Source: a virus
Lineage: Duplodnaviria; Caudoviricetes
Length of the DNA: 64,000 bases
Strand: one strand, 5' to 3'
IMG/VR virus record: IMGVR_UViG_3300033066_001190
Span: 1-64,000 of that record
Shown: piece by piece, positions 3,919-20,777 of the stretch
How the letters are laid out: each line of letters begins with the position of its first letter
How positions within the stretch are numbered: the stretch's first letter is position 1
Made by a program: the position numbers and the translations under genes
The notes under the pieces: model-generated
The model's database searches: none
What the model was told of the DNA's origin: nothing
What the model saw: the letters and a program-made list of their open reading frames with translations, nothing else

Positions 3919-3938
3919 GTTATTTGTATATTTATATG

Positions 3939-3970
3939 CAAATATATAAATACTATATCAATATACCAAA
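3939..3970 (-). promoter_or_regulatory. Bacteroidota sigma-A-type promoter upstream of the HNH gene
   Basis: TTTG-N20-TATATTTG matches the -33/-7 consensus TTTG...TAnnTTTG. Confidence 0.7.
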
Positions 3971-4114
3971 TTTATTTTACATCTATTGCAACTTTCTCAC
4001 AAAAATATTCTTCTCTACAATTAAGAAAAACACAATTGTTGTTTAATGTACAGCTCTCTCCCTGTTTTTTAATTCCGTTTTTACTACAGGAATTTAGTTT
4101 AATTAATTTGTATT

Positions 4115-4693: not shown

Positions 4694-5035
4694 TTAAATT
4701 AAGTTGATTAATACATATTCAATTGCAGCAGAGTAGGCTTCTGATAGTGAATTGAATCTAGATGTTTCACAATCATCTATTGTTTTATATGGATTACCTA
4801 CTTCCCCACTAATAAAATAATACCAATAGACACTACATGGATATTCATCTCCATTATTTTGTGGAGTCCAATCAACGCTAATCCAAATTCCATATTTCTC
4901 ATACAACCACATTATAACCTGCATTATTTCAGAATGTAGATGCTGATTATCTTTATTCATAGAATCTAATTCTTCTACAGTATTTTGATAGTAATGCTTG
5001 TAACCTTTTTTACTTAGTCTTTTGAATATTTCCAT
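4694..5035 (-). CDS. Hypothetical protein, paralog of 6036..6437
   Basis: EIFKRLSKKGY...VIMWLYEKYGIWI...EAYSAAIEY aligns by eye with EIAKLLKKKGF...VVDWCFNKYKYSI...KALEDTINH. Confidence 0.7.
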   Translation of the reverse strand: MEIFKRLSKKGYKHYYQNTVEELDSMNKDNQHLHSEIMQVIMWLYEKYGIWISVDWTPQNNGDEYPCSVYWYYFISGEVGNPYKTIDDCETSRFNSLSEAYSAAIEYVLINLI

Positions 5036-5847
5036 ATAAAATTATTTGCTGTTTTTTGTTTATTTTTACAACATCTTATTATAGATGATTTAGATGTTTT
5101 TGTTTGTTTGGAAGCTTCTGAAATAGAAATCCAAGTCTTAATTAGCAATCCTTCTAAATTATATTGATTTACTTGAAAAGGTTTACCTATGTATACTTTT
5201 TTAGGCTTTTGTATATAATCAATTGGATTTTCTTTTCTCTTCCAAATAAACCCTTTGGAAGATTTTTGTTTTCCATTTACACAAGAGTTTATGCCACTTT
5301 CATAAATGCCTAATTTATTAGCAGCTTCTCTCATTGAAAACCATTCTCTAATAAAATTCATTTCTAAATTATATTGTATAATAGAAACGCTAAGTTTTTT
5401 ACTAATATTCTTTTTCCACTCCTCTGTTCTTTTTTTACCAATGTTTGCTTTTCTTATTTTCTCTTTTCTTTCTTCATTAAATTTTTTTCCTTTTAAACTA
5501 TTAGATATTTTTTGTTTTACGTCATCAATATGAGAGGCTCCTTCACCACCAAAAGTCTTATTGTAACCATATAAATCAATATGTGATTTATATTCTTTAA
5601 TTAATTTTATTTCTAATTCATTAAGAGTTATTTCTTCTATCTCCTCAAAAGAGTCTAAAATCAAAAAACTAAAATTAACTTCACCATATTTATTAAATGA
5701 ACTTTGTAAATGAGAATTTGGATGAGTGTTGCTTTTTAAGGCATATAAATGTTTTTCCCATCTTTCAGATATATTTTTAGATTTACCAATATAAACTTTA
5801 TTGTTTATAACATTTTTTATACAATAAATTCCACAAATTTTATCCAT
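5014..5847 (-). CDS. GIY-YIG homing endonuclease with NUMOD3/NUMOD1 domains
   Basis: GIYCIKN...VYIGKS..ISERW..H; GYN.T.GG; two QYNLE..I..W.S..EA...I..C..GK modules. Confidence 0.93.
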   Translation of the reverse strand: MDKICGIYCIKNVINNKVYIGKSKNISERWEKHLYALKSNTHPNSHLQSSFNKYGEVNFSFLILDSFEEIEEITLNELEIKLIKEYKSHIDLYGYNKTFGGEGASHIDDVKQKISNSLKGKKFNEERKEKIRKANIGKKRTEEWKKNISKKLSVSIIQYNLEMNFIREWFSMREAANKLGIYESGINSCVNGKQKSSKGFIWKRKENPIDYIQKPKKVYIGKPFQVNQYNLEGLLIKTWISISEASKQTKTSKSSIIRCCKNKQKTANNFIWKYSKD

Positions 5848-7076: not shown

Positions 7077-7340
7077 TTAAAACCATTTTATCACTTTACT
7101 CAATAATCCAGCATATATTACAAACATAAAACTCAATAATGCCCAAATTGATATAATTTCAAAGAAATTTCCTTCAAATGGGTTAAATGGGACATTTTTT
7201 TCATTGCATTTCTTGTTTACATTATATACAGAATATATCCCTAAAATGATTATAATAGATAGTATTGTTATTTCTTTCATTTGTTTTGATTTTAAGTTTA
7301 ACCATTCCATCTCTAACACATTTAGGTTTTCTAACTTCAT
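7077..7340 (-). CDS. Small membrane protein (true start probably the internal Met near 7280)
   Basis: Two hydrophobic segments. Confidence 0.55.
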   Translation of the reverse strand: MKLENLNVLEMEWLNLKSKQMKEITILSIIIILGIYSVYNVNKKCNEKNVPFNPFEGNFFEIISIWALLSFMFVIYAGLLSKVIKWF

Positions 7341-7406
7341 GCGAAACAGCTTTCATAGCATATTGAACTATTTCATGTGTACAAGGTTTCATTTTAATTA
7401 ATTTTG

Positions 7407-7553
7407 TTCTGTGGGCAGGATTCGAACCTGCATGAGTAACATTTTCAAATTTGCCTATGGCTAACAAAAGCAGTAAACTGCATTAATTTTCTATTTGCTA
7501 GGTCTTACTCTAGGGCAACCCTCTTTAGCGTCTGCCAATTCCGCCACCACAGA
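7407..7553 (-). ncRNA. Atypical tRNA-like RNA (Leu/Ser-type D and T arms, no canonical anticodon arm, ~80-nt variable arm)
   Basis: Acceptor TCTGTGG/CCACAGA with discriminator A; U8; D arm GCGG-AATTGGCAGA-CGC; T arm GCAGG-TTCGAAT-CCTGC; ~95 nt between D and T arms. Confidence 0.8.
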
Positions 7554-7567
7554 ATCCTTAAAGATTA

Positions 7568-9001
7568 TTAATCTTTAACTTGTTGATAATAATTCCAAAT
7601 CTCTAACCAATTGGCATATGTTGATTTCGCAGATTTGCAACCAGTTTTTTCAAACGTAATTTCTGATACTTTAGCATCATAACTACCAAACTTTGTTGGA
7701 ACATTGCTGTAAAAATCTACCATTTCTTTTACATAATTGGTAATATTTTCACTACCTTGATAAATTCCTTGTGGTTTTACGTTTACAATAAATGAATTAG
7801 GTGCGCCAAGAGTAAAATCTTTAGATGAATAAGCTTGAATTTCTTCTGGTGTAGCTTTTCTCATAAATTCATCTTGACAACCTCCTTCTACTTTTTCATT
7901 AGTTGCAATTACAAACATTTTTCCTCCGTAATAAGCTTTTTTAGGTTGTACAATTTTTCCAAATAAATCTTTTTGTCCAGCAGCCCAATGAGTTGCATTT
8001 GCTGGTACATTAAGAATCACATAATCCCCCACTTTAAACTTTTCTTCGTAAACGGCTTCCCAAGTTTCTACGATTTCTGCTGGAAGAACTATTTTATTAT
8101 CTCCATCATATTTACATTCATACCAAACTCCAAAATAAGAACTTGTTTTTTTAAATGTTAATCCTTTTACACTATGTCCCCCTAAATCCATAGGAGCTTT
8201 GTAACCAATTATTTTTCTTGTTGTTTGTTTTTCCATGTCTATTAGTTCTTGCAATTTGTAAATTTGAATTTCTGAGTCAGGTTTTACTCTACCACTGTAT
8301 TGTACTATTTCGTCACTTTTAACCCAATAAATGCGAGAATCAAAACCTTCACCCGTATAATCATTTATATCATATCCACGTTTTTCAAACCAATTAAGGA
8401 TATCTTTCCCATTTTCATTTTCTATAACTATTCCAAAATTTTCTGTAGGTAACATTTGTTTAGGGTTTGTTTTGTTATAATATTCTTTTAATGTTTCATC
8501 TTCTCCAAATTTAGGAATATAGACGTTTTTAATGAATTGTTCTATGGTTATACGTTTATAATTAGAAAACTTATCAATATTATTATTAAACCATCTTGTC
8601 GCACAATAAAAACTTCTATCAACAGTGTGTTTTGATAATAAAATTTTATCTAAATATCTATCAATCATATCACGATATGTTCTAACTGAATTTCTCCATT
8701 TCTCAAAAATATCAAATGTTTCTTCTGTATATTGTATATACCATTGTTCTGGAAATTCTTCAAAATCAATTTCATTAAAGAAAATAACAGTGTCAGCTCC
8801 AGATTGTTTATAAGATCCAGCATCTGTTTTTGAAACAAAATAATCCCATGTACCACGTGTTAAACTATAATTTTTTTTTCTTGAAGACGGCCAAAAATTA
8901 CACATGTTAAATAAACCTGTATCTTTCAATTTCTGCCATTGTTTTTTTGTTTCAATATAAACAACTACTTTATCATTGTTTACTAAATCTTTTAGTTTCA
9001 T
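7568..9001 (-). CDS. Mosaic multi-module hypothetical protein
   Basis: 477 aa built of short modules (FPEQWYI, LPTENFGI, RKIIGYKAP, FKVGDYV...RKATPEEI). Confidence 0.8.
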   Translation of the reverse strand: MKLKDLVNNDKVVVYIETKKQWQKLKDTGLFNMCNFWPSSRKKNYSLTRGTWDYFVSKTDAGSYKQSGADTVIFFNEIDFEEFPEQWYIQYTEETFDIFEKWRNSVRTYRDMIDRYLDKILLSKHTVDRSFYCATRWFNNNIDKFSNYKRITIEQFIKNVYIPKFGEDETLKEYYNKTNPKQMLPTENFGIVIENENGKDILNWFEKRGYDINDYTGEGFDSRIYWVKSDEIVQYSGRVKPDSEIQIYKLQELIDMEKQTTRKIIGYKAPMDLGGHSVKGLTFKKTSSYFGVWYECKYDGDNKIVLPAEIVETWEAVYEEKFKVGDYVILNVPANATHWAAGQKDLFGKIVQPKKAYYGGKMFVIATNEKVEGGCQDEFMRKATPEEIQAYSSKDFTLGAPNSFIVNVKPQGIYQGSENITNYVKEMVDFYSNVPTKFGSYDAKVSEITFEKTGCKSAKSTYANWLEIWNYYQQVKD

Positions 9002-9294
9002 ACTAATTGTTTTATTTCTTTAATTTGTTCTTGTGTTAATTCGCTTTGATCTAAATTTCTAAATCTGGAAACTTTCCAAGCAGGTTCTTTTAAAGCACTT
9101 CCTAAAATTTTATGTTTAATTGGTACTTCCTTGTTAATTATTTCATTTAACAAGATTTCCCAATCTCCATTAGAATTCCTAGAAATGCTTCTAGGACTAT
9201 ACATAACATCTTTTAGAGGTGTTACAATTCCATGTTGATCATAAAAAGCTCTTTGTTCAGCACTAAAATTACCATCTATACATAATAAATCCAT
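8998..9294 (-). CDS. Hypothetical protein
   Basis: ATGA-coupled ORF. Confidence 0.7.
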   Translation of the reverse strand: MDLLCIDGNFSAEQRAFYDQHGIVTPLKDVMYSPRSISRNSNGDWEILLNEIINKEVPIKHKILGSALKEPAWKVSRFRNLDQSELTQEQIKEIKQLV

Positions 9295-9488
9295 ATTAAT
9301 TTAGTTGTTTTAGATTGTTTTTTAACCTATTTAAAGCTTCTTCATACCTTAAATTGAATTTTTCTTTTTCTGATAAATCATTCCAATTATCAGGATATAC
9401 AGTGGTTTTTATTTTAACAACAGGTTTTTGTATTATAACCTCTTGTTGTTTTGGTAAAAGTAGTTCTAATATGCTCATAAGTTTAATT

Positions 9489-9896
9489 TTAATACCAATC
9501 ATTACCAATTCCGCATTCTTCCAATCTTTGACGAGTTGGCATATATGTTTGAGTGTATGATGAATAAAAATCAATCCCTATACCATCAAACATTTCGCTT
9601 TCATATTCAGGATCACAATCTTTAAAATAATCCTCTCTTGAAGAAATTTTTAAATGTTTTGCAGTTTTTAGTTTATCAAAGTCAATAGGTTGTAAAAATT
9701 CAATAATTAACGTCCTATCATCTGAATGATAATTGGGATTAATTTCTTTTGTAACAATTCTATAATCTAATCCTGCTGTCAATCCTTCGTAAATAGATTG
9801 TATACTTTTTTGAGCAGAATAACTATCTCTATCATTCCATTTTGTGTGATGCACTACTGCATCTTCACAAAGTTTAATTAAATCTTGTCTTTCCAT
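9489..9896 (-). CDS. Hypothetical phage protein
   Basis: LIKLCEDAVVHHTKWNDRDSYSAQ...YMPTRQRLE...DWY. Confidence 0.75.
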   Translation of the reverse strand: MERQDLIKLCEDAVVHHTKWNDRDSYSAQKSIQSIYEGLTAGLDYRIVTKEINPNYHSDDRTLIIEFLQPIDFDKLKTAKHLKISSREDYFKDCDPEYESEMFDGIGIDFYSSYTQTYMPTRQRLEECGIGNDWY

Positions 9897-9910
9897 TTTT
9901 TAATTTAATA

Positions 9911-10225
9911 TTAATATAAATCCTCGCTGTACAATGTTTGTTTTTCCTCCTTGATTTGACCCGCATCAAAGGCAATGATAGCCCCTTCCTCTCTATCAAC
10001 AAATCGGTTCTTATTAGTTAAAAAGCCTTGAACATATTCTCCACATTCAGTAATAACGCTTCTTTTTCCTGTAATTGCAGACATAGAATACATACAATGA
10101 GGGTGTCTATGTCCACAAAATACAATACCTTCATGTACATTTATAGGATTTTGATTAGCAAGTCCTTCTTTTATTAATGGTAGTTCTTTATACCAAATCG
10201 CAGCACACAAAATATATTCATTCAT
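9911..10225 (-). CDS. Hypothetical phage protein
   Basis: ILCAAIWY...GHRH...QGFLTNKNRFVDREE...LYSEDLY pattern. Confidence 0.8.
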   Translation of the reverse strand: MNEYILCAAIWYKELPLIKEGLANQNPINVHEGIVFCGHRHPHCMYSMSAITGKRSVITECGEYVQGFLTNKNRFVDREEGAIIAFDAGQIKEEKQTLYSEDLY

Positions 10226-10249
10226 ATTCCTTTCATTTAGTTGTTAGGG

Positions 10250-10552
10250 TTAGGGGGTGCGGAATTGTCTTTTTGTTATTCCAGTAATGATTTTTTTAAT
10301 TTCATCTACGCTAAAAAATCCATCGTAATCATAATTATATAGGCAAATAGCTTCAGTAATATTCCTGAAATCATTGGGGTCACTTTTACATATATATAAT
10401 GTTTCGTTTGGCGTTCCGAGGTTTGCAATAGAAAGATGTCTATTTCTCCCTAAGTCATAAATTAAATTGTTGCCAATTGTGAAGTGAGGCAGTTCCTTAA
10501 ACCCAATATCTAAATACTGCTTTCGCAATAAATCGCCTTTATATCCTTCCAT
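10250..10552 (-). CDS. Hypothetical protein
   Basis: 100-aa ORF in the operon. Confidence 0.7.
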   Translation of the reverse strand: MEGYKGDLLRKQYLDIGFKELPHFTIGNNLIYDLGRNRHLSIANLGTPNETLYICKSDPNDFRNITEAICLYNYDYDGFFSVDEIKKIITGITKRQFRTP

Positions 10553-10569
10553 GTCGTTTTGGTTTTGGT

Positions 10570-10827
10570 TTAATTATCTATTCTTACAGTGTTACCTTTA
10601 AATACACCTCTCGTAACACAACCTGTGACTATTTCACCATTTGGAGCAATCGCTTTAAATTTTGTTGCATAAAAATCACCTTCTGAACGCATAAACCATG
10701 CATATCCACCAATTTCAATTGGTATGTATTTATTATATTCTAGTGTTTTTTTTGTTCCTTCTTTATCTGTACAAGAAGAAAAGAAGATTGTTAATGTAAA
10801 AATTGATAATTTTAATAAATTTTTCAT
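10570..10827 (-). CDS. Small phage lipoprotein
   Basis: Signal peptide ending FFSS-C; GY.WF...D.Y.T.F.A..PNG..V.G.V..G..KG.T.R pattern. Confidence 0.75.
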   Translation of the reverse strand: MKNLLKLSIFTLTIFFSSCTDKEGTKKTLEYNKYIPIEIGGYAWFMRSEGDFYATKFKAIAPNGEIVTGCVTRGVFKGNTVRIDN

Positions 10828-10828
10828 T

Positions 10829-11380
10829 TTATTTCTTTTTTAAAAATGTAACAAATTCTTCCCCTTTATCGGAAAATGATTTTATCATTGAACAAATTAA
10901 ACCATATGACATTCCAGAATGACCTTGTCCTTCAATAATTACTTTAACTTTGTCAAAAGATTCATTATTGTTTAAAGCATTTACAATTTCAAGACACATA
11001 GGTAATTCCATCCCTTCATATAAATCATTAAGTCTTATAGGAACACATTTAGCCCATAATTTATGATACTTTTTATCTAATATTTCATTACCTTTTTTAA
11101 TCCATTCTTTAGTTAATTCAGGTATAGATTGTTTGTGTTTTTCTTGTTGCTCTTTATATTCTTGATTGCGTTTTAAATCTTCTGCATCCCATTCTGCTTT
11201 TGATTTTCCAAGTATTTTTTTATAAGCTGAATCAATGTCATCTATATCAGAATATAATAAATGTCCGTTAAAAGAACCATAAACTAATTTACCTTCTTTT
11301 TTATATCTTTGTAATTCTTGAATTGCAGATTCAATATTACTTCCTAGTAAAAATGCAATTTCGGTGTAATTTTTTTTCAT
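10829..11380 (-). CDS. Hypothetical phage protein
   Basis: FNGHLLYSD...W..CVPIRL.DLY.G...QGHSGMSY. Confidence 0.75.
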   Translation of the reverse strand: MKKNYTEIAFLLGSNIESAIQELQRYKKEGKLVYGSFNGHLLYSDIDDIDSAYKKILGKSKAEWDAEDLKRNQEYKEQQEKHKQSIPELTKEWIKKGNEILDKKYHKLWAKCVPIRLNDLYEGMELPMCLEIVNALNNNESFDKVKVIIEGQGHSGMSYGLICSMIKSFSDKGEEFVTFLKKK

Positions 11381-11925
11381 TTCATTTCTTTTAATGATTG
11401 TGAATAAGATTTTATGTATTTTTCATTTCCTGGATAGTTTTTGTTACAATACACTTGATCTAGGAATTGATAATATTCATCTTCTGTTTCGATGTTTCTT
11501 GTAAAAGCCTCTTGATACAAGGCGTAATCAATGAGAGATTCTCTCCAATTTCTATAAACATTAAAACCTAGGTTTTCACCTCTTGCTGTTGTAGCTCTTG
11601 AAAAGCTAGGTCGCATTCCTGTTATATTGTGATTTATTTTAGATATATTGGATTTTAGGTAATTGCTTTCTCTCTTGATTTGCTTTAAAACAATATTTGG
11701 AAACCTTATTTTTAAAGCTTTAATTTCTTTTTCTACCAATTGTAGATTTAGGTCGTTATTTTTTTCAATAATGACAGGAACTCTTTCTGTATAATTATTT
11801 GTAATTACACCAGATGTAAAAGAGATTAAAAAGAACACAACAACTACCAAGAATAGAATAAAGTAATTTTTTCTAGTAGTTGTTGGTTCAAATTGTAATG
11901 TTTGTTTGTTGTATTTGTATAACAT
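11377..11925 (-). CDS. Membrane-anchored glucosaminidase (GH73-like peptidoglycan hydrolase)
   Basis: N-terminal TM helix; Q...ES....S.....HNITGMR...YRNWRESLIDY motifs. Confidence 0.7.
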   Translation of the reverse strand: MLYKYNKQTLQFEPTTTRKNYFILFLVVVVFFLISFTSGVITNNYTERVPVIIEKNNDLNLQLVEKEIKALKIRFPNIVLKQIKRESNYLKSNISKINHNITGMRPSFSRATTARGENLGFNVYRNWRESLIDYALYQEAFTRNIETEDEYYQFLDQVYCNKNYPGNEKYIKSYSQSLKEMK

Positions 11926-11969
11926 AATGTTTGTATTAAGAACACAAATCTATGAATTCTAGGTCGGTG

Positions 11970-12161
11970 TTAATTGTGATTATTTCCATTGAAGATTAAT
12001 TTTATCATTTTAATTACTGCTAACCAGCTCCAAAAAGATTCTTTTAAATTAAGATGTTCTGGAAAATTGTTAGCTGTATTCCATAAAGAAATACTCATTG
12101 CTGCAATAGCTACACCAGAACAATATGCCAAAAATAGGCAAAATATTAATGTTTCTATCAT
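11970..12161 (-). CDS. Small membrane protein
   Basis: Hydrophobic 63-aa ORF. Confidence 0.55.
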   Translation of the reverse strand: MIETLIFCLFLAYCSGVAIAAMSISLWNTANNFPEHLNLKESFWSWLAVIKMIKLIFNGNNHN

Positions 12162-12218
12162 TTGTAATGGTTTTTAATAGGGAGAAGTTGTTACACTCCT
12201 CCCTATTTTGTTAAAAAA

Positions 12219-12599
12219 TTAAGCTGTTACAGCTTGCGATTCAAATTGTTTTACAAATTCTTCTACATTAAAATTTGTTACGTCATTATCATCTTCAAAT
12301 AAACTTTCACGATTGTTTGGAGATGTAAACTTATAACGAGTTTCTCCCCCTTCATTTACTGTTTTAGCAATACTTGTTGAAAGAATATAATTCTTTACAG
12401 AATTACCCTCTCCAATTGTATCAATTACACTTTGAGCTGATGCTCTTGAAAAATAAACATTTGTAGCTTTACCATCTTTTCTATACAATGTTACATAAGG
12501 ATAACCATTTTGGTTAATTTTTAATCCTGGGCTAACTTTTGTAATTCCTACCAATTTTGCTAAAGATTTAAATTCAGCTACTTCTAATACTTGTTCCAT
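12219..12599 (-). CDS. Hypothetical protein, possibly ssDNA-binding
   Basis: Beta-rich with an acidic tail (NQNGYPYVT...NVYFSR...GETRYK); flanked by a structured leader and a 3' hairpin. Confidence 0.55.
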   Translation of the reverse strand: MEQVLEVAEFKSLAKLVGITKVSPGLKINQNGYPYVTLYRKDGKATNVYFSRASAQSVIDTIGEGNSVKNYILSTSIAKTVNEGGETRYKFTSPNNRESLFEDDNDVTNFNVEEFVKQFESQAVTA

Positions 12600-12700
12600 G
12601 TTTTTAATTGTTTTAATTGTTATAAATGATTAATTTTCAATTGATTAGCTCAATTTGAATAAAGCTGTAGATATACTATTCGCAGTGTTCTACCCTGCTA

Positions 12701-12964
12701 TTACCTGAATTTCATTTCTGGTAATCCTTCATAAATACGTACCACTTTGTGTACATGATCTCCCATTGCTAATTGAAGATCATTTAACACTCTTCCAGCT
12801 TTCTTTACCTGAATGCCTATTTCTTCATGATTTACCTTTGGTTTAAAAGTTTTGAAATATTCAGCACTCGGTTTGTACTTATAAGAAGTACCACGAAAAC
12901 TAAGTCTACCTTCTTTGGTAGCTTGTTCAATTGCTTTAATAGCTTTTTCTCTTGCTGGATTCAT
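12701..12964 (-). CDS. Hypothetical protein
   Basis: ORF in the operon. Confidence 0.65.
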   Translation of the reverse strand: MNPAREKAIKAIEQATKEGRLSFRGTSYKYKPSAEYFKTFKPKVNHEEIGIQVKKAGRVLNDLQLAMGDHVHKVVRIYEGLPEMKFR

Positions 12965-13688
12965 TTTCTTGGAATTTTAATGGTGGACAATGATTTGTAT
13001 AAACTCCTGTTAATTTTGTAAATAGCCAACCTAATAATGCACCTAAAATGATGAACGGAAGCTTGATTAATTGAAATACACCTTGTAAAATGTCCGTAAT
13101 AGGATCTAACCAATATTCATTCCATTCCTCTTTTTCATGAACTAAATAAATTATTCCTAAAATAACAGCTATTGAAACAGAAATGACTAATAGAAAAAAC
13201 ATTATTGTAATAGTGTATTTAATCAAACCAATAATAATTAAAGTGGCAACTAAAACGATTAATCCCCCAATAAATAAATTCCACATGATTGTTTTAGCAT
13301 TTTTATACATTACTTTAAATGCTTCTCTTCTAGTTGTGGGTATATTTACATCAGGTACTTTATCTACCAATTTGTGCCAACTTTTAGGTATTTGGTTACG
13401 AAATACATAATTAGATGCTTTTTCTAATAATTCAAAAATAGGAAAACCAATATATACACTCAATACATAAAAAGGAATAATATGCAAACTAAGCACAATT
13501 AACCAATAATAAGGGCATGTGTTTTTTACATCATCTGTATCAATGTCCCACATCCATTTTATTAGTTTAAAATGCCATGATTTTTCACTAATTAAAAGAA
13601 ATCCTGTTCTGGATTTATACATCCAATAAAACATCCCTAATACACATAATAGTGCATCTACTAATAAAAGTATGAACTTTATTTTCAT
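12936..13688 (-). CDS. Multi-pass membrane protein
   Basis: Several TM segments; SWHFKL...CPYYW...CPPL. Confidence 0.75.
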   Translation of the reverse strand: MKIKFILLLVDALLCVLGMFYWMYKSRTGFLLISEKSWHFKLIKWMWDIDTDDVKNTCPYYWLIVLSLHIIPFYVLSVYIGFPIFELLEKASNYVFRNQIPKSWHKLVDKVPDVNIPTTRREAFKVMYKNAKTIMWNLFIGGLIVLVATLIIIGLIKYTITIMFFLLVISVSIAVILGIIYLVHEKEEWNEYWLDPITDILQGVFQLIKLPFIILGALLGWLFTKLTGVYTNHCPPLKFQENESSKRKSY

Positions 13689-13710
13689 TTTTTGATATTT
13701 TTTAATAAAT

Positions 13711-13743
13711 AAAAAAAGGAGAAGGTTTTTACACCTCCTCCTC
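13711..13743 (-). terminator. Intrinsic terminator after 13772..14170
   Basis: AGGAGGAGGT-GTAAAA-ACCTTCTCCT followed by a T run on the minus strand. Confidence 0.8.
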
Positions 13744-13771
13744 TAACCACAACCGAAACACACTAATATTA

Positions 13772-14170
13772 TTATGCTAAATCTTGTAAACGATCAGCAT
13801 GCATTTGTTTTGATTCACTTAAATCAGCCATTTCAGCTTTTACAGCATCTAAACGAGTTTTAGCTGTTGCTAATTGCTGAGATTTAGAATTGTAATTGTT
13901 TACATAGCTTTCGTAAGTATTATCGTTAGGCAGGTAAAATCTAGCTTCTTCAAGAGCTTTTTCAGCTTGATTCACTGCAATTGCAGCTCTTTTAAGATCC
14001 AATTCTTTTCTACGAATTTCCAAATCATAGGCAGCAATCTGCCCATCTGCATCAATTCTTGCTTTTTCCAAGAAGTTTACAATTGCTTCTTCTTGTTTTT
14101 GTTTTTCTGTTTTGTTTAGATTAGCAAGATTTACTGCTAAAAACTGTGATTTTTTTGTTGTTGTTGACAT
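13772..14170 (-). CDS. Coiled-coil protein
   Basis: A/E/K/Q-rich heptads; has its own terminator. Confidence 0.75.
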   Translation of the reverse strand: MSTTTKKSQFLAVNLANLNKTEKQKQEEAIVNFLEKARIDADGQIAAYDLEIRRKELDLKRAAIAVNQAEKALEEARFYLPNDNTYESYVNNYNSKSQQLATAKTRLDAVKAEMADLSESKQMHADRLQDLA

Positions 14171-14172
14171 GT

Positions 14173-15324
14173 TTAAATTGTTTTAATGGTTTTGATTAAT
14201 TTGATTTGTTTCGGTTTACTAACTGTTGTTGGTTGTGGTTGTTTAAAGAATTTGATTAGTTTTGATGGAGAATCAGGATTTATTGAACCTACTATTGCAA
14301 AACTTGCTGAATTAGATACAATATCTGAATCAATAAAACCTATTTTACCTCCAAATCTAAGAATAGCTTGTTTAAATTCATCAAATGATACAGGTTTATA
14401 ATGATTAGCACGTTCTAAAAGGTTTATTTGATCACCATCCCAAGTTATTTGAGGATATTGTCGAATGCGTGAGAGATGTTTATACTGTTCTTTATCAGAT
14501 TTGCAAATTGGAACATTATTCTCAATAGCTAAATCAAACAATTCAATGATTTGTTCATGTGTACAATCTCGACATACAGTGAGTGCATCAAACAAAACTT
14601 TTGGTTTAGATGGTTCAATTGTTCTACCTGCAAATTTTAGAATTGCTTCTTTGAATTGTTGAGGAGTTAACTCTTTTCCTATAACAGTGTCCCTTCTTAA
14701 AATCTCCTTCTCTTTTAAATTCCAATAAACATATTTGTACACACCATTTTTATAACTTTTGACGGTATGCTCATAAACCTCAACTCCACATTCAATAGCT
14801 AATTCTACTATTTCCTCAATATCCTTTTGTGTGCAAGGGACACATGTTACATCTGTATCAAATAGCATTTTAGGAGTTTTTGGTTTTTCAGGAACATCTT
14901 CAACTAATTCTAGCATATATTCAGCAATACAGTTTTCCTTATTTTCCCCATTCATTGCATAATAAATTATACCATCATAGATGTTGATATCACTTATTTG
15001 ATAAATATCTCCATGAAGATGACATTTAACAAAGCTTCCTTCCCTGTTACGAAAACCTGCATTAAAAACATCTTGGTCACTAGCTTTAACTCTAACTCTG
15101 TTTCCTACTTTAAATTTAGGTTGGTTAGGTAATGGATCTTGAGTGAAGTAGCTATCAGTTGCAAAAAATACAAAATTGTTTTTACGATATTCTTCATCTG
15201 TTACTGTTTTTCCTAAATAATTATTAAAATTACCTATTCCCCAACCATTAGGAGTGTCATAAATATCACACCACAATCCATCTCGAATAAACTCCTCTTT
15301 TGTCTTAAATCTCCATTGTGCCAT
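14173..15324 (-). CDS. Mosaic protein with an internally duplicated domain
   Basis: Two copies of PK.LFD...C..CT...I.E...LAIE..V.......F..AIL.F.G. Confidence 0.8.
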   Translation of the reverse strand: MAQWRFKTKEEFIRDGLWCDIYDTPNGWGIGNFNNYLGKTVTDEEYRKNNFVFFATDSYFTQDPLPNQPKFKVGNRVRVKASDQDVFNAGFRNREGSFVKCHLHGDIYQISDINIYDGIIYYAMNGENKENCIAEYMLELVEDVPEKPKTPKMLFDTDVTCVPCTQKDIEEIVELAIECGVEVYEHTVKSYKNGVYKYVYWNLKEKEILRRDTVIGKELTPQQFKEAILKFAGRTIEPSKPKVLFDALTVCRDCTHEQIIELFDLAIENNVPICKSDKEQYKHLSRIRQYPQITWDGDQINLLERANHYKPVSFDEFKQAILRFGGKIGFIDSDIVSNSASFAIVGSINPDSPSKLIKFFKQPQPTTVSKPKQIKLIKTIKTI

Positions 15325-15513
15325 AATTAATTAAGTATTTCTACCGTTAAAAAATTATTTCTCTCTAAATCTCTTCCTAATTCAGAAGCAGAAGAAATAT
15401 TCCATGCTCCAATAGCATTAATAATTCTAAATGCTCCGTCTTTACGAAGAATTTTGATTTTCGTCTTTTTAAATTTGTCGAAATTTGCTGTGTTGTTCAT
15501 AAGTTTATGGTTT

Positions 15514-15789
15514 TTATTTGTTGAAATTTTCAAAATATTCTGTTATTGTTGGACCTGGAATATTCATTTTTGCTACATCATTAATAATCTGTTGCATTCT
15601 TTCTTTTGGTATTTGTTTAATAGCAGCTTTAAATGCTTCATCAGCTCTTTCTAGAGTTTTTGAATTATAATCTTCAAGTTTTACAAAATATTCATAAGCT
15701 TTGCAAAATGCCCAATGTTCTTTTTGTAAATCAGGCTCATTTAAACATTTTTCTATTTGTTCTTCAAGCCACTCTTTGTACTTTTTCAT
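15514..15789 (-). CDS. Hypothetical protein
   Basis: ORF in the operon. Confidence 0.65.
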   Translation of the reverse strand: MKKYKEWLEEQIEKCLNEPDLQKEHWAFCKAYEYFVKLEDYNSKTLERADEAFKAAIKQIPKERMQQIINDVAKMNIPGPTITEYFENFNK

Positions 15790-15903
15790 AAGTTTATGGT
15801 TTATATCAAATTTGTCAGGCTAAACCTGATTATATTGATATGGAAAATAAAAAAATAAGCTGTACCCTCTTGTCTTTATTATTATTTTTCTTAATTTTGT
15901 TAC

Positions 15904-16422
15904 ATGAATTCAGGAATATACAAAATAACAAATATTATAACAAATGATTTTTACATTGGTTCTTCCTCTAATTTAAAAAGAAGAAGATACAGTCATTTTA
16001 ATGCTTTAGAGAAAAATAGAAATCATTCAAAAATACTACAAAGAAGTTATAATAAATATGGTAAAGAGAATTTCATTTTTGAGATATTATTTTATTGTCC
16101 TGAAGAATATAATATCAAACTTGAAAAATGGACAATTAAAATATTGAATCCTAAATACAATATATGTAAAACAATTCCAAATAATACAACAGGTTACAAA
16201 CACACTGAAGAAGATAAAATTAAAATGAGTTTAATAGCTTCAACTAAAAAATTACAAAAATTATATCAATATGATAATAATTTAAATCTTATTAAAATTT
16301 GGGACTCTTGTAAATCTTATACTTCTTTTTATAATATTTCCACAGCAGCTTTATCTAAAGCCCTTAGAAAAAATAATAAATGTGCAGGTTTTATAGTATC
16401 AAAGAAAAATTTAAACAACTAG
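15904..16422 (+). CDS. GIY-YIG homing endonuclease, inserted antisense to the early operon
   Basis: MNSGIYKITNIITNDFYIGSSSNLKRR...H...PKYN plus NUMOD tail; TAATTTTG -7 element at 15892-15899 just before the ATG. Confidence 0.93.
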   Translation: MNSGIYKITNIITNDFYIGSSSNLKRRRYSHFNALEKNRNHSKILQRSYNKYGKENFIFEILFYCPEEYNIKLEKWTIKILNPKYNICKTIPNNTTGYKHTEEDKIKMSLIASTKKLQKLYQYDNNLNLIKIWDSCKSYTSFYNISTAALSKALRKNNKCAGFIVSKKNLNN

Positions 16423-16608
16423 TTGTCTCTCTAATTGAGAATATACTTTGTGTGTGGTTTGTCCACATCCTTCGCATATCCTAATCTAAAAATAAACATT
16501 TCTTAGATAATGTTAATAACTATTGGACACCTTTTAAAACCACTTGTCCTTTTTACACTCGAAGTTTGTGGGATAGTTATTTTTTTAGTATTAAGCAACT
16601 AGTTGTCT
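16411..16608 (-). ncRNA. Candidate structured ncRNA flanked by 18-bp direct repeats with a palindromic core
   Basis: ttaa(a/g)caactagttgtct at 16411 and 16591; nested internal stems; no ORF. Confidence 0.45.
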
Positions 16609-16615
16609 TTTAAGT

Positions 16616-16798
16616 TTATAGATTTTGTTCAATCCATTGACTTGCAGATTTGAAATCTCCCATAGGACTACCATCTGAATAAAAATATTTGGTCATATTT
16701 CTATTAACGTCTAAAGATTTATCCCAAGCTAATTTCATAAGTTGTTCAACTTCTTCTCTACTGTAAGAATCTTTCTTAACTATTTCTTTGGTTATCAT
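16616..16798 (-). CDS. Small hypothetical protein
   Basis: YSREEVEQL...WIEQNL pattern. Confidence 0.65.
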   Translation of the reverse strand: MITKEIVKKDSYSREEVEQLMKLAWDKSLDVNRNMTKYFYSDGSPMGDFKSASQWIEQNL

Positions 16799-16804
16799 AA
16801 TTGG

Positions 16805-17257
16805 TTATTTAGTAGTTTTGTAAGAAGAAATTTGATTCAATAAAGTACTTAAACCAATATTAGTTATTTTAACTTCAGAAGCTAACATTATTAACATTGA
16901 TATTTTATCATCGTTTGAAAATTTATCAATGTAAGCTTTAAAAAGATTTTCATCAAATTTAACAAATTGTTTTTGATTTGGTTTAGAATTAAGTATTTCT
17001 AACACTTTTTCACCACCAGTAGCTAATACACCACTAGTTTCTTGTAACCAGATTTTTTCAATTTCTGAACCTGTTAAACTATTAACATCTCTATCTGGAT
17101 AACCAGCAATTAATTTTTTATGTTCAACCATTAATTCCCATTTTTTTACAAATAATAATGAATTAAACCATGTAATAGCTTGCTCTCTTATTGAGCGTGA
17201 TTGTTCAATTTCATCCCAAGTTTTACCTAAAGGGTTTGATGTTTCGTTTGTTTTCAT
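16805..17257 (-). CDS. Hypothetical protein
   Basis: REQAITWFNSL...SLTGSEIEKIW. Confidence 0.7.
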   Translation of the reverse strand: MKTNETSNPLGKTWDEIEQSRSIREQAITWFNSLLFVKKWELMVEHKKLIAGYPDRDVNSLTGSEIEKIWLQETSGVLATGGEKVLEILNSKPNQKQFVKFDENLFKAYIDKFSNDDKISMLIMLASEVKITNIGLSTLLNQISSYKTTK

Positions 17258-17270
17258 CTTTTTGTTGTTT

Positions 17271-17720
17271 TTAATTATTAATTAATTTATAATCTTCATA
17301 TTTACCATTACCTCGAAGTATTCTGTTAAACACTTGTTTTTTAGGTTTTGGTAATTTAATTAGGTATTTGTATTTTTTACCAACCTTCTCTTTTATTTGA
17401 ACCATTGATAGATATGATCTATATATCAGAATAATCCTTTCTAAAGGTGTTAATTCTTCTGATTTATATGTATCTTGTAGTTCTTTATGAAGAAGTTCAT
17501 GAAAATACTCAATCTTTTTAGGATCGGTTAATTTTAAAAGTTCGTAAAGTTCATCAGCAATATACCTATCAACTTGATTCTTTTTAGCAAATTCATAATC
17601 ATATCCACACCTAATAGCCCAAATCATCCTAAAAGCTTCTAAAATGTTTTGATATTTGTAATGACCTTTGCATAAAAGAATCATATGACCTCTTATACCT
17701 TTAATTTCTATTGGTTTCAT
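17271..17720 (-). CDS. Hypothetical protein
   Basis: 149-aa ORF. Confidence 0.7.
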   Translation of the reverse strand: MKPIEIKGIRGHMILLCKGHYKYQNILEAFRMIWAIRCGYDYEFAKKNQVDRYIADELYELLKLTDPKKIEYFHELLHKELQDTYKSEELTPLERIILIYRSYLSMVQIKEKVGKKYKYLIKLPKPKKQVFNRILRGNGKYEDYKLINN

Positions 17721-17750
17721 TTGTTTTCTTATTTAGAATTGTTTTTAAAA

Positions 17751-18005
17751 TTAATAAAGTTGTATTCCTAATATCTTAGCTTTTTCAACATCAATTTTTT
17801 TGTACCAAAGTTCACAAACTACGCAATCTTCTTCCCATATTACATCAACTACCTCCATTCTTGTGGGTAATTTTTGATTAAAATAGTGACTTTTAAATGT
17901 TTCTAACACTGAAACACTTTCTCCTATTCTAGGAGGAATTTGCAAACCTGTAGGAAAACAATTTCTACGATATTTGTCAACATTAGTTATAAATATGATA
18001 TTCAT
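17751..18005 (-). CDS. Hypothetical protein
   Basis: PPRIGE.V...LP..MEVVDV.W...VCELW. Confidence 0.7.
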   Translation of the reverse strand: MNIIFITNVDKYRRNCFPTGLQIPPRIGESVSVLETFKSHYFNQKLPTRMEVVDVIWEEDCVVCELWYKKIDVEKAKILGIQLY

Positions 18006-18074
18006 GATGGTTATGTTGTTTTAAGTTCTTTAAACAAATAAGTTAATTCTGTATTCAATGTTTTATTAAATTTT

Positions 18075-18766
18075 GTTGCTGGTAATTACCTCCAGCTCGC
18101 ACAATGTTTAGGTAAGAATCCAATAGACATTCATCTATCAACATCTAATTTTGTATCCTAAACTACTACAATTCTATTACTAGAAATTGAGGCATTAAAC
18201 ACTATAACTTCAGAAATAGTTATATACTAGGACTCTCTACCTAATGTTTATGCTGCCACATTACATACTTACTTAAATTGATAACTATTAACTTACAATT
18301 ATTTTTAATAGTATTTTCAGTATGTATTTACAATTCTCTACCAATACCTCATATCCTTTCTCATCAGTTTTGGTATAAACTATTTCTAAAATCCCTCAAC
18401 AATTAACAATACAAGGTTTCAACACCCTAGAACTTCCCGATTGAAGTATATTTGTTTATTGAGAGTAACCAGCTATGTTTGGTTCAGTGAGTGTTCTACA
18501 GATAAAGAAACACACAACCATGTTTTTAAAGAAAAGTTGCTTGTCCAAATTCTAGTGGAATATACAAATAGCTAATCATGTTTAGTTTTTATTCTAAACA
18601 TAGACCATTTTGAACTTCATCTACTTTGGCTACATAATCTCTTATGAAATTAAGGTATACCTCTACAACAAAACACAACTGCTAGTACAATTTTACCAAG
18701 TGTGCTGTGTAGGTCACTCAATTACTACTGGTTGTTTGTCTTCAAGCAAGCAATTCTCTTTAAAAA
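18075..18766 (-). ncRNA. Cluster of candidate structured ncRNA domains (~700 nt)
   Basis: No credible ORF; long closing stem 18523-18543/18747-18766; many nested helices with G-U pairs on the minus strand. Confidence 0.55.
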
Positions 18767-18768
18767 GT

Positions 18769-18954
18769 TTATTCTTCTATCCAAGAAGCTATTAAATTTC
18801 GATGACTGAACTCAAAATCCTTAACTCTTACGAACCTGTCAGGATTTCCTGTAACAGATAGTAATCCCTCTTTAGCAGTATATTTCATACAAAAAGGAAT
18901 AGGTTTATCTGAACAAAATATAGCTCCTGTTGTAAATAAATACATGTGTTTCAT
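18769..18954 (-). CDS. Small hypothetical protein
   Basis: 61-aa ORF. Confidence 0.55.
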   Translation of the reverse strand: MKHMYLFTTGAIFCSDKPIPFCMKYTAKEGLLSVTGNPDRFVRVKDFEFSHRNLIASWIEE

Positions 18955-18973
18955 ACTATTAGGATTTTAAGAA

Positions 18974-19345
18974 TTATTTACAATATTGTAAAATGTGTTG
19001 TAAAGCCCAATATTCAGGATTGAAATAACCATTTACAACATCACCAAGACAACAAAAAGTCATAATGAAAAGAATTCCAAAAATGATTACACAAGCAAAC
19101 ATTACTCCTTGATAAACTCCATCGCTATTGTAATATCTCGAATTTCTTTCGTCTTTTTCTGGTTTAGCTAACCAAAAATGGATTTTTAATAGCACAATTC
19201 CAAATATTACAATACATAAAAATTGCAATAATGTTGTTGTGGCATCTATTGGAGCTTGTTTCAAAAGAACACTCCAAAGATATTCTGAAGTTGTTCCTAA
19301 TTTTTGAGCTAATTGCTCAATTAGTTTTAATGTTTGTTCGTTCAT
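18974..19345 (-). CDS. Membrane protein
   Basis: LAQKLGTTSEYLWSVLLKQA, two TM helices, FNPEYWAL. Confidence 0.75.
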   Translation of the reverse strand: MNEQTLKLIEQLAQKLGTTSEYLWSVLLKQAPIDATTTLLQFLCIVIFGIVLLKIHFWLAKPEKDERNSRYYNSDGVYQGVMFACVIIFGILFIMTFCCLGDVVNGYFNPEYWALQHILQYCK

Positions 19346-19366
19346 TAGTTATGGTTTAAAAAGTTT

Positions 19367-19591
19367 TTAAAGTTGATTTTCTATGTAACAAAAGGAATCT
19401 ACAATCAAATATAATGTACCAAATCCGCTTAATACATAAAAAAATACAAAGGGACTGTTAACTACTTCTACCATTTTTACATCAAATATTAATGCAAAAA
19501 ATGCAGTGAGTAACCAATTACATCCTGTAACAAGCATAATGATTACTATTGTTACAACAGGATAAAGAAATAATTTAAGTAGTGGATTCAT
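19367..19591 (-). CDS. Small membrane protein
   Basis: Hydrophobic ORF. Confidence 0.6.
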   Translation of the reverse strand: MNPLLKLFLYPVVTIVIIMLVTGCNWLLTAFFALIFDVKMVEVVNSPFVFFYVLSGFGTLYLIVDSFCYIENQL

Positions 19592-19694
19592 GTTATTTGT
19601 TTTTTTTTTTATGTTGTTAAAATTGTTTTCTTCCCTGTTGTATTAAACGAAAAGAGTTTAGCTTTGATATTATCTCCCCTTAAACTCAAAGTTA

Positions 19695-19895
19695 TTAAGA
19701 AATTAAAAGCTGCTTAAAACCTTTAATTTTGTTAATTTCAGACTCTAATTCTTCTATTCTGTAATTCCAAGAACTATCTCTTTCTTTAGCTTCTTTTAAA
19801 CTATTAAGTTTAAATTCAAGAAGTTCTATAAATTCTTCATAAGGAACTACAGCCATTAGTCCATGCTGATGAAGCATATTAAAATAATTTACCAT
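19695..19895 (-). CDS. Small hypothetical protein
   Basis: 66-aa ORF. Confidence 0.55.
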   Translation of the reverse strand: MVNYFNMLHQHGLMAVVPYEEFIELLEFKLNSLKEAKERDSSWNYRIEELESEINKIKGFKQLLIS

Positions 19896-19918
19896 AAATT
19901 TTTTTTGAGTTGTGACCT

Positions 19919-20091
19919 AATAATCAATTGATTTAACAAATAGACAGAGTGAGTTTACACTTTCTTGGATAATAAATCCTACTGTCTTATATTTATTAAA
20001 ATACTACCTTATATTATTTCTATTCTGCTCCAACTAAGAAGTTCAGTAATAGCCCTAATTTCGGTTTTTGTAGTACAATCAATTGATTATT
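19919..20091 (-). ncRNA. Candidate structured ncRNA closed by a 15-bp perfect inverted repeat
   Basis: AATAATCAATTGATT/AATCAATTGATTATT ends; two internal multi-helix domains. Confidence 0.5.
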
Positions 20092-20183
20092 AACGCCTTG
20101 CACCTAACACATATTTATACTGTTGCAAGCCAGTTTTGTAAAAAAGTGGAAGCTTTTGGTAAGGTTTACCAACCTTTTGTTGT

Positions 20184-20423: not shown

Positions 20424-20777
20424 TTAAAAGATTAAAAAAGGTATTTGAATAGGTAATTTCACCCAATAGCCGTTGCTAATATTAGGTGGAACTTGACCAT
20501 GAATACGAGGTTGAAAAACTTTAACACTACCAAAAGCAGCTTCTACTTGCTCTTTAGTGTATTTTTTCCAATAACTCCGTTTTACAGCGTATAAATCATA
20601 CACTTCTTCAAAGTTAATTTTGCCATCTACTTCAGGAAACATTGTTCCAGATACTATAACAAGAACTTGTGCATCATTACCTAATTTATTTTCAATTAAG
20701 TCTTTAATACACATAGAAAGAGAAAGTCCGATAAATTGTGACATAATTGTTTTTTTTGAGTTTGAGCTACCATGCAC
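20424..20777 (-). CDS. Hypothetical phage protein (start probably at MSQFIG)
   Basis: IGLSLSMCIKDLIE...IVSGT...YW...QPR...P..SNG.W. Confidence 0.7.
   Translation of the reverse strand: MHGSSNSKKTIMSQFIGLSLSMCIKDLIENKLGNDAQVLVIVSGTMFPEVDGKINFEEVYDLYAVKRSYWKKYTKEQVEAAFGSVKVFQPRIHGQVPPNISNGYWVKLPIQIPFLIF

Follow-up and report, generated by a model that had tools for sequence, protein, structure and literature searches.

Background and locus

Bacteriophage T4 makes stable RNAs from its transfer RNA (tRNA) cluster, to which no role has been assigned (PMC3014915, PMC9697503). Self-cleaving ribozymes are found near phage genes and have been proposed to process polycistronic transcripts (PMC6765202). 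Long intergenic regions are also known as sources of RNA: two in phage phi14:2 give rise to stable RNA early on, at levels above those of most genes (bioRxiv 10.1101/2020.03.07.982082), and Lak megaphages contain large, highly expressed intergenic regions (PMC6784885). The present analysis concerns the gaps between small minus-strand genes in IMG/VR virus record IMGVR_UViG_3300033066_001190, and in particular two structured elements found there: a tRNA-like RNA with the body of a tRNA-Leu at 7407-7553 and a predicted pistol-type self-cleaving ribozyme at 19911-20134. The window, i.e. the whole stretch of DNA analysed, comprises the first 64 kb of this 106.6-kb record.

The window uses the standard genetic code, carries terminase, portal and capsid genes of crAss type, and contains a leftward block of small minus-strand genes that runs from about 0.6 to 20.7 kb. 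An initial annotation, made from the sequence alone, had drawn attention to gaps in this block, and the gaps were confirmed to exist as described. The following stretches contain no minus-strand open reading frame (ORF):

7341-7567, minus strand: ORF-free stretch that holds the tRNA-like element
15790-16615, minus strand: ORF-free stretch, of which 519 nucleotides (nt) are the antisense of a plus-strand GIY-YIG gene
18006-18768, minus strand: ORF-free stretch of 763 nt
19592-19694, minus strand: ORF-free stretch that holds a conserved hairpin
19896-20183, minus strand: ORF-free stretch that holds the predicted ribozyme

Above-chance structure is clear for two elements, those at 7.4 kb and 19.9-20.2 kb, and the decisive evidence is comparison with other sequences, not folding energy. 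The identity and architecture of these two modules, as well as their position relative to the surrounding ORFs, can be read directly. The gaps are interpreted here as a mixed set of elements in which two RNA-processing modules punctuate the leftward polycistronic transcript, a reading to which a probability of about 0.55 is assigned.

A tRNA-like element with a tRNA-Leu body

The element at 7.4 kb has the following parts, given in sense orientation:

7407-7553, minus strand: tRNA-Leu-bodied RNA that is predicted not to decode, read from the sequence and script-checked; 111 bits with the family covariance model R1
7547-7553 with 7408-7414, minus strand: acceptor stem UCUGUGG/CCACAGA, 7 base pairs (bp)
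Between acceptor stem and D arm, minus strand: UG
7528-7544, minus strand: D arm GCG-GAAUUGGCAGA-CGC
7432-7527, minus strand: 96-nt centre in place of the anticodon and variable arms
7415-7431, minus strand: T arm GCAGG-UUCGAAU-CCUGC
7407, minus strand: discriminator A, without an encoded CCA
7390-7406, minus strand: 14-nt A-rich trailer and first ATG (7392-7390)

The space between the neighbouring genes is laid out as a stop codon (7568-7570), 14 nt, the element, 14 nt and an ATG. Traits of canonical tRNAs were found in the acceptor stem, the D stem (GCG/CGC), G18G19, the T stem (GCAGG/CCUGC), the T loop (UUCGAAU) and U48, while a 5-bp anticodon stem with a 7-nt loop (U33, purine at 37) is absent from the element. 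The RNA retains a bacterial tRNA-Leu's acceptor stem, D and T arms and elbow but, having no anticodon loop, cannot decode. Neither ARAGORN in its default mode nor Rfam, RF00005 included, finds the element; the intron mode of ARAGORN offers only an 'Asn' model, in which the anticodon stem is mismatched. The possibility of a transfer-messenger RNA (tmRNA) was rejected, as the ARAGORN tmRNA search finds none, pair 3:70 is U-A and not G3:U70, and the element is only 147 nt long.

According to the summary of Larkin et al. 2002 in PMC9976931, a minimal tRNA-Leu that lacks the anticodon and variable arms continues to be charged by E. coli's leucyl-tRNA synthetase (LeuRS). The element resembles bacterial and minimal tRNA-Leu in its type of D arm (UGGCGGAAUUGGCAGACGC), its T loop UUCGAAU, A73, A14, A15-U48, G18G19 and A20a, and it has every E. 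coli LeuRS element that this summary reports as sufficient, including the D-loop/T-loop contacts. It differs from bacterial tRNA-Leu in its 96-nt centre and in having neither a 7-nt anticodon loop nor a canonical variable arm. Leucylation of the RNA is thus a lead, not a result, and the rules of the host LeuRS may differ from those of E. coli.

The T4 RNAs RNAC and RNAD (species 1 and 2) are comparable in being small stable phage RNAs (139 and 119 nt) that are not decoding tRNAs. They are encoded together with tRNAs, adjoining the GIY-YIG endonuclease gene segB, and the 3' end of RNAC is a tRNA-type T arm (CCGGGUUCGAAUCCCGG). The present element, however, has no sequence similarity to them and lies alone between protein genes, and RNAC is without a tRNA-Leu D arm.

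The ATG at 7392 opens a 56-aa ORF (7222-7392, minus strand), part of which coincides, in a different frame, with an 87-aa membrane-protein ORF (7077-7340); a frameshift, an error in the sequence or a wrongly assigned start may account for this.

A family with a conserved body and a variable centre

Relatives were sought in viral contigs with a pattern consisting of the D-arm sequence, a gap of 85-115 nt and the T loop, in which neither the acceptor stem nor U48 was fixed. Fifteen matches were obtained, of which 10 were single elements, each with its own closing acceptor stem, and a metagenome scan gave 7 more (6 distinct). The 15 relatives share the core, whereas their centres of 83-115 nt have no common sequence. 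In the 15-sequence alignment the acceptor stem is 91% paired with both-sided changes at 7 of 7 pairs, a result equalled by none of 500 shuffles, and pairing falls to about 40% when the partner strand is slid along. Pairing across the acceptor and T stems is 91-99% with compensatory changes present, and U48 is almost invariant.

One family member lies within an array of 10 tRNAs and three others lie near tRNAs. No constant partner gene was found across the members, the neighbours being ordinary phage replication genes. Seven of 16 members are followed, 14-27 nt downstream, by the start of an ORF of 40 aa or more, and in an eighth an ATG at 22 nt opens a shorter ORF.

A search with the family covariance model also led to a 70-nt mini element in a crAss-like phage that is only distantly related, with a capsid protein 55% identical (L046 1501-1570, i.e. 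88609-88678 of record G005). It has acceptor, D and T arms and a 20-nt A-rich linker, is devoid of an anticodon arm, and ends 14 nt before an ATG. The acceptor of this mini element, AGUCAGG/CCUGACU, is also present in a 137-nt member with an insert and in a 74-nt near-normal tRNA, and was found in at least 111 distinct viral sequences (IMG/VR loci L093-L172 and more), all of them with A73, a tRNA-Leu-type D arm and a T arm, and with hypervariable bodies of 67-93 nt. Among the 111 sequences listed, no tRNA call is obtained for 63, and the anticodons called for the others are scattered; no 5-mer of the centre occurs in more than 15 of those listed. At most one ordinary tRNA is nearby in 64 of 107 loci, and the distance to the next ORF start or ATG peaks at 10-20 nt, in both cases among the matches listed. 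By these comparisons the body of the family appears to be under selection and the centre free to vary.

The range of forms that share one acceptor, from a near-normal tRNA of 74 nt through 70 nt without an anticodon arm to 137 nt with an insert, would also be expected of a decaying, functionless tRNA pseudogene. Decay should nevertheless hit all arms, whereas the acceptor and T stems remain paired, U48 is kept and only the centre varies; moreover, the core is intact in at least 111 distinct sequences. A pseudogene is consequently considered extremely improbable.

Alternatively, the 7.4 kb element could be an intron-containing tRNA-Leu gene whose transcript is spliced into a working decoder. 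'Enigmatic' introns have been described in tRNAs of Lak megaphages (PMC6784885), the D arm of the element matches that of bacterial tRNA-Leu, an RtcB ligase gene neighbours one family member, and the 74-nt relative with the shared acceptor is called a tRNA by ARAGORN. When, however, every single deletion that leaves a centre of 22-43 nt was tried in 15 members, the resulting 10,395 variants gave inconsistent ARAGORN anticodons (Asn, Phe, His, Ser, Thr, Glu, Arg and others) with no shared Leu, and the best model for the window has a mismatched anticodon stem. Furthermore, Rfam gave no group I or group II intron match, and a self-splicing intron would need far more room than the centre offers. 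Splicing into a decoder was therefore judged very unlikely.

A predicted pistol ribozyme with a large P3 insert

The gap at 19.9-20.2 kb contains an element with the complete helical plan of a pistol ribozyme:

19911-20134, minus strand: pistol-type ribozyme, predicted to be self-cleaving, with a 143-nt insert in P3; based on a partial Rfam match, script-checked helices and alignment to 27 phage pistols
20131-20134 with 20119-20122, minus strand: P1, ACUG/CAGU, 4 bp
20124-20129 with 20097-20102, minus strand: pseudoknot CUUGCA/UGCAAG, 6 of 6 pairs
20112-20118, minus strand: linker AUAAAUA
20108-20111 with 19911-19914, minus strand: P2, UGUG/CACA, 4 bp
20077-20093 with 19917-19933, minus strand: P3, 17 bp, made up of a perfect 16-nt inverted repeat and a closing U.G
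Between G19916 and U19915, minus strand: predicted cut
19934-20076, minus strand: 143-nt insert in P3 with two sub-hairpins (z = -2.0), flanked by the 12-nt duplicated palindrome AATCAATTGATT
19893-19915, minus strand: 20-nt leader UCACAACUCAAAAAAAAUUU and the AUG of ORF 19695-19895, which would begin the 3' product of cleavage

At gathering thresholds Rfam gave no match in the whole window. In E-value mode the only match, besides chance matches to snoRNA and miRNA families, was a sub-threshold one to Pistol (RF02679), which covers 20074-20134 with P1, AUAAAUA, the 5' strand of P2, UUAGG and GCGU and stops at P3. The core of RF02679 is present at 20093-20118 (AUAAAUA, UUA(A/G)G and G-CGU), in columns that are invariant in the pistol alignment, and P1, the pseudoknot, P2, P3 and the G|U dinucleotide all occur in the same register as in natural pistols. 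A search of viral contigs with the conserved-core pattern gave 34 sites, and all 10 of those tested were confirmed as Rfam Pistol at 45-75 bits. The 42-nt 5' domain of the window's element aligns without gaps to 27 distinct natural phage pistols, in an alignment where pairing across P1 and the pseudoknot reaches 97.7% and covariation is seen at 9 of 11 pairs. The P1 helix of the window's element also includes a compensated G-C pair.

When compared with RF02679 as described by Weinberg et al. 2015 and Harris et al. 2015, in the form in which PMC6765202 cites them, the element is alike in P1, the 6-bp pseudoknot, the linker, the core, P2 and G|U. It is also alike in the guanine aligned with the general base, in the closure of P3 by U.G and in its intergenic place within a phage operon; it differs in the 143-nt P3 insert, the single P1 mismatch and the sub-threshold score, and its cleavage is predicted. 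By architecture, 19911-20134 is accordingly classed as a pistol ribozyme for which self-cleavage is predicted.

Several points weigh against this assignment. The score of 21.8 bits is below the RF02679 gathering threshold of 34.5. The fifth pair of P1 is a G.A mismatch, and the first P2 position is U instead of the G of the 27 other phage pistols, although the partner compensates (U-A). Folding in spite of the 143-nt insert is only predicted. The low score can be attributed to the model being unable to span the insert, so that only the 5' half is aligned, and P1 and pseudoknot sequences that diverge from the typical ones lower it further; natural pistols with P3 inserts of 55-70 nt are also aligned in part, yet reach 45-55 bits. 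At 176 nt, the span of P3 plus loop is the largest of 22 pistols for which it could be reliably assigned, the usual range being 14-36 nt, with 69-87 nt in three. The duplicated 12-nt palindrome that makes up the P3 arms is what the entry of a 143-nt segment into the loop of an ancestral 8-bp P3 hairpin, UAAUAAUC-AAUU-GAUUAUUA, would produce. The insert bears on how much a pistol may tolerate, which would be useful for ribozyme engineering.

No second pistol core was found in the genome. Among phage pistols, 9 of 20 lie 8-47 nt before an ORF start. Arrays of ribozymes between small genes, spaced over no more than a few kb, were seen in other loci, with three Pistol elements in L058, two in L077 (with a tRNA nearby) and two in L079. 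The leader motif AACUCAAAAAAAA (19899-19911) recurs at 20750-20762, before an ATG at 20744, and a second repeated leader, ACCAUAAACUUAUGAAAAA (15493-15517 and 15782-15806, minus strand), likewise lies directly upstream of start codons; these repeats could possibly be shared translation-initiation or processing signals.

Punctuation of the transcript and the effector alternative

The shape of a tRNA is what ribonuclease (RNase) P and RNase Z recognise. The two host enzymes would be expected to cut on both sides of the tRNA-like element, thereby releasing a stable RNA of about 147 nt and leaving a 14-nt leader on the downstream message. The pistol would cut itself between G19916 and U19915, so that the message downstream would start with a 5'-OH and a 20-nt leader, and the upstream RNA would keep the ribozyme, 143-nt insert included, at its 3' end. 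Such cleavage probably occurs and would serve message separation or stability. Both modules end 14-20 nt before the next ATG, and as this short stop-to-ATG placement is common to them, plain punctuation of the transcript fits better than an effector function. As in tRNA punctuation (mitochondrial) and ribozyme punctuation (PMC6765202), the element fills the space from stop to start; unlike in those systems, only two of the approximately 45 gene junctions of the block carry one.

This reading has its own difficulties. Only about half of the relatives of the tRNA-like element and of the pistol sit near a start codon, and punctuation explains neither the large structured inserts in both modules nor the hypervariable centre that the tRNA-like family carries on a conserved body. 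In 120-nt sliding windows on the minus strand, the gaps fold no better than coding sequence (mean z of -0.73 and -0.59, respectively; p = 0.21), and for the gaps at 16.4 and 18 kb there is no comparative support.

Alternatively, the elements could be RNA effectors, such as decoys, antitoxin mimics or anti-defence RNAs, with the tRNA body and the pistol as scaffolds for delivery and stabilisation and the centre and the P3 insert as active cargo. Both modules carry their large structured insert at a position that tolerates insertion, and a conserved body with a hypervariable centre in more than 100 phage sequences is the pattern of molecules in an arms race. All identity elements for E. coli LeuRS are present, the armless tRNA-Leu being still charged according to the summary in PMC9976931, and T4 provides a precedent for stable RNAs made from a tRNA cluster (PMC3014915, PMC9697503). 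Against this, family members have no constant neighbour gene, the tRNA-like RNA has no antisense target in the genome, and the inserts share no motif. A decoy for anticodon nucleases would need the anticodon loop that is absent here, and in the 70-nt form of the distant relative a 20-nt unstructured A-rich linker takes the place of the centre, which is thus dispensable there. An effector role was on balance considered unlikely. Its specific version, in which two self-trimming scaffolds (a leucine-accepting tRNA body and a pistol) yield stable RNAs that display variable cargo, and in which the centres would evolve fast through binding or distracting host factors such as defence nucleases, synthetases or transferases, is held to be improbable as well; if true, the family of at least 111 sequences with one identical acceptor stem would be a natural 'tRNA scaffold' platform, and the RNA might be charged with leucine without decoding.

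With regard to the initial annotation, its statement that none of the elements is a canonical tRNA holds with both ARAGORN and Rfam, and structured RNAs in sense orientation are genuine in at least two gaps, on the strength of acceptor covariation and of the pistol core. Its proposal that each is cut out of a polycistronic transcript by its own closing stem is borne out in so far as both modules are of processing kinds, but the closing stems are an acceptor stem and a ribozyme P3. A structured element in essentially every gap is found at 7.4 and 19.9-20.2 kb, whereas the case is weak at 16.4 and 18 kb, and 3340-3971 is a broken HNH gene. The elements do not form one set or one system, being unrelated in sequence and kind; nor do they all lie outside recognised families, as one is a pistol of RF02679, an outcome that partly matches what the initial annotation had itself named as grounds for refutation. 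The effector role that it suggested is neither supported nor excluded; there is no constant protein partner, no antisense target in the genome and nothing among the findings that points to a decoy, an antitoxin mimic or an anti-defence RNA.

Standard annotation misses both modules, because of Rfam thresholds and default tRNA finders, and gaps in crAss-like phages consequently look unexplained. If the modules are cutting signals, they offer a model for how the messages of a Bacteroidota phage acquire their 5' ends and short leaders, and a testable function for a pistol. The tRNA-Leu-bodied family may punctuate transcripts, be charged without decoding, or act as a scaffold that carries variable RNA modules; a comparably large class of phage RNAs with a conserved tRNA-Leu body and a free centre was not found described in the literature.

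The gaps at 16.4 and 18 kb

Two further gaps contain folds on the sense strand, and the features concerned are as follows:

16423-16615, minus strand: 193-nt spacer (sense z = -2.44, antisense z = -0.28)
15904-16422, plus strand: free-standing GIY-YIG homing endonuclease gene (Pfam GIY-YIG, 3.6e-9; PHROG homing endonuclease, 2.6e-21)
18006-18768, minus strand: ORF-free 763-nt stretch, candidate long non-coding RNA on the basis of folding

Sense-strand folds with closing helices were reproduced for all four gaps, with whole-element z values of -2.05 (7.4 kb), -2.44 (16.4 kb), -3.67 (18 kb) and -3.34 (19.9 kb). In local folding, coding windows at 12100-12279, 14020-14139, 17260-17379 and 19060-19359 (minus strand) surpass every gap, with z of -3.7 to -6.2. 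Folding energies by themselves are therefore suggestive at 18 kb but carry little weight at the other gaps. No intrinsic terminator (GC-rich hairpin followed by a U run) was found in the four gaps by the terminator scan, a textbook one being located at 13715-13744 and other terminator-like sites also lying outside them. A sigma-70 promoter scan was uninformative, with 79 sites against 88 expected.

The 763-nt stretch has no minus-strand ORF of more than 30 aa, no PHROG match in six frames read through stops, no Rfam match, and no similar DNA in the phage records and relatives searched. Its sense strand folds with a minimum free energy of -178.3 kcal/mol (z of -3.7 to -3.8) and its antisense strand with -138.6 kcal/mol (z = -2.1). 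Eleven coding windows of equal length average z = -1.1 +/- 1.2, as compared with -3.8 for the stretch, although one of them reaches -3.73; its folding energy is the lowest among the windows of that length compared. The block has 25 inverted pairs like the 13-nt repeat that closes it, this one included. A hammerhead-like motif (CUGAUGAG) within it was rejected, as it has neither stem II nor stem III and no Rfam match. The stretch resembles the long intergenic regions of phi14:2 in being a long ORF-free stretch among small genes in a phage of Bacteroidota (763 nt, compared with about 1.7 kb in NC_021806), but it has no sequence similarity to them and is known from sequence alone. The regions of phi14:2 and of Lak megaphages are its only precedents, both from the literature. 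A transcribed, non-coding RNA is its most likely identity, as yet unproven.

Flanked on one side by the stop codon of ORF 16616-16798 and on the other by the 3' end of the plus-strand GIY-YIG gene, the spacer at 16423-16615 has no Rfam match. It is bracketed by an 18-nt direct repeat, AGACAACTAGTTG[C/T]TTAA (16591-16608 and 16411-16428), whose core CAACTAGTTG is a palindrome and whose second copy includes the stop codon of the homing endonuclease gene on the opposite strand. If undivided, the sequence would form a weak hairpin with a U run directly after the stop codon. In the whole 106.6-kb record only two palindromes of at least 10 nt are duplicated within 200 bp, and they are those of the 16.4 and 19.9 kb gaps: the copies of CAACTAGTTG are 180 bp apart and those of AATCAATTGATT 155 bp apart (19922-19933 and 20077-20088). 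Each pair brackets a segment of 143-162 nt, as a target-site duplication of a split hairpin would. The two inserts have no similarity to each other, and no other copies of them were found. Insertion or recombination around the homing endonuclease is inferred to be the most likely origin of the 16.4 kb spacer.

These duplications raise the alternative that the features at 16.4 and 18 kb, and even that at 19.9 kb, act as DNA, for instance as insertion scars, cassette ends, operators or promoters, with incidental folds. The restriction of duplicated palindromes to the two gaps, the abutment of the 16.4 kb repeat on a homing endonuclease gene in a record full of such genes, and the ordinary folding of gaps at the 120-nt scale are all consistent with it. 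At 19.9 kb, however, the palindrome is P3 in exact register with a complete pistol core, and paired DNA operators were dropped as an explanation once this register was seen; as the palindrome forms P3 in register, an origin by insertion and a role as RNA are compatible. The 16.4 and 18 kb sequences also fold clearly better in sense than in antisense orientation with composition controlled, and the two inserts are unrelated and without further copies. Action at the level of DNA is considered less likely than not, and punctuation by the two processing modules remains the preferred reading of the block.

Other homing endonuclease genes of GIY-YIG/NUMOD types lie at 5014-5847 (minus strand) and 52978-54279 (plus strand).

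A conserved hairpin and other features of the record

A further conserved element is present in the gap at 19.6 kb, and was also found in other phages:

19654-19690, minus strand: hairpin with the 15-nt loop GGAGAUAAUAUCAAA and a variable stem of 8-10 bp, starting 4 nt after the stop of ORF 19695-19895
L049 7940-7986, L050 7399-7447, L051 208-254 and L053 5841-5887: copies of the hairpin elsewhere

It was recognised as the one striking non-coding match, 37 nt long (19654-19690) and 95% identical in a relative whose capsid protein is 55% identical, when the records of five distant relatives were compared by blastn. A scan for the loop gave five distinct phage versions, in which the loop is invariant and the stem changes, three pairs having changed on both sides. 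Wherever an upstream ORF is visible (the window, L049, L050 and L053) the hairpin is directly 3' of the stop codon, and it is present in a single copy in this genome. A protein-binding site and a processing site are candidates for its role. The GGAG-containing targets of T4 RegB are another candidate comparison. In the distant relative with the 95% match, an ORF-free stretch of about 790 nt comes right after the hairpin. With the exception of this hairpin, the gaps have no similarity to the long intergenic regions of phi14:2 and distant relatives.

No relatives of the region were found among 50,697 phage records by megablast and blastn, and no loci with the neighbouring proteins (477 and 383 aa), the portal or the closest capsid homologue were found in the viral, metagenome and genome collections searched, from which records very close to the window may be missing. 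A search of sequencing runs listed no RNA run that contains the phage. A capsid protein search did show that proteins 78-88% identical to that of the window exist.

The leftward block also encodes a glucosaminidase-type, endolysin-like gene and membrane proteins; as the endolysin-like gene lies inside the block, the 'early' timing that the initial annotation gives to the block is an assumption only. Two further gaps in the block, at 3340-3971, correspond to a broken HNH endonuclease gene. Here a NUMOD4 and HNH_3 homing endonuclease gene (3340-3918, minus strand) has one in-frame TAG near 3834-3836, and it is either a pseudogene or read through at TAG. Elsewhere in the window, the large terminase ORF (27721-31014) is unusually long at 1097 aa and possibly contains an insertion.

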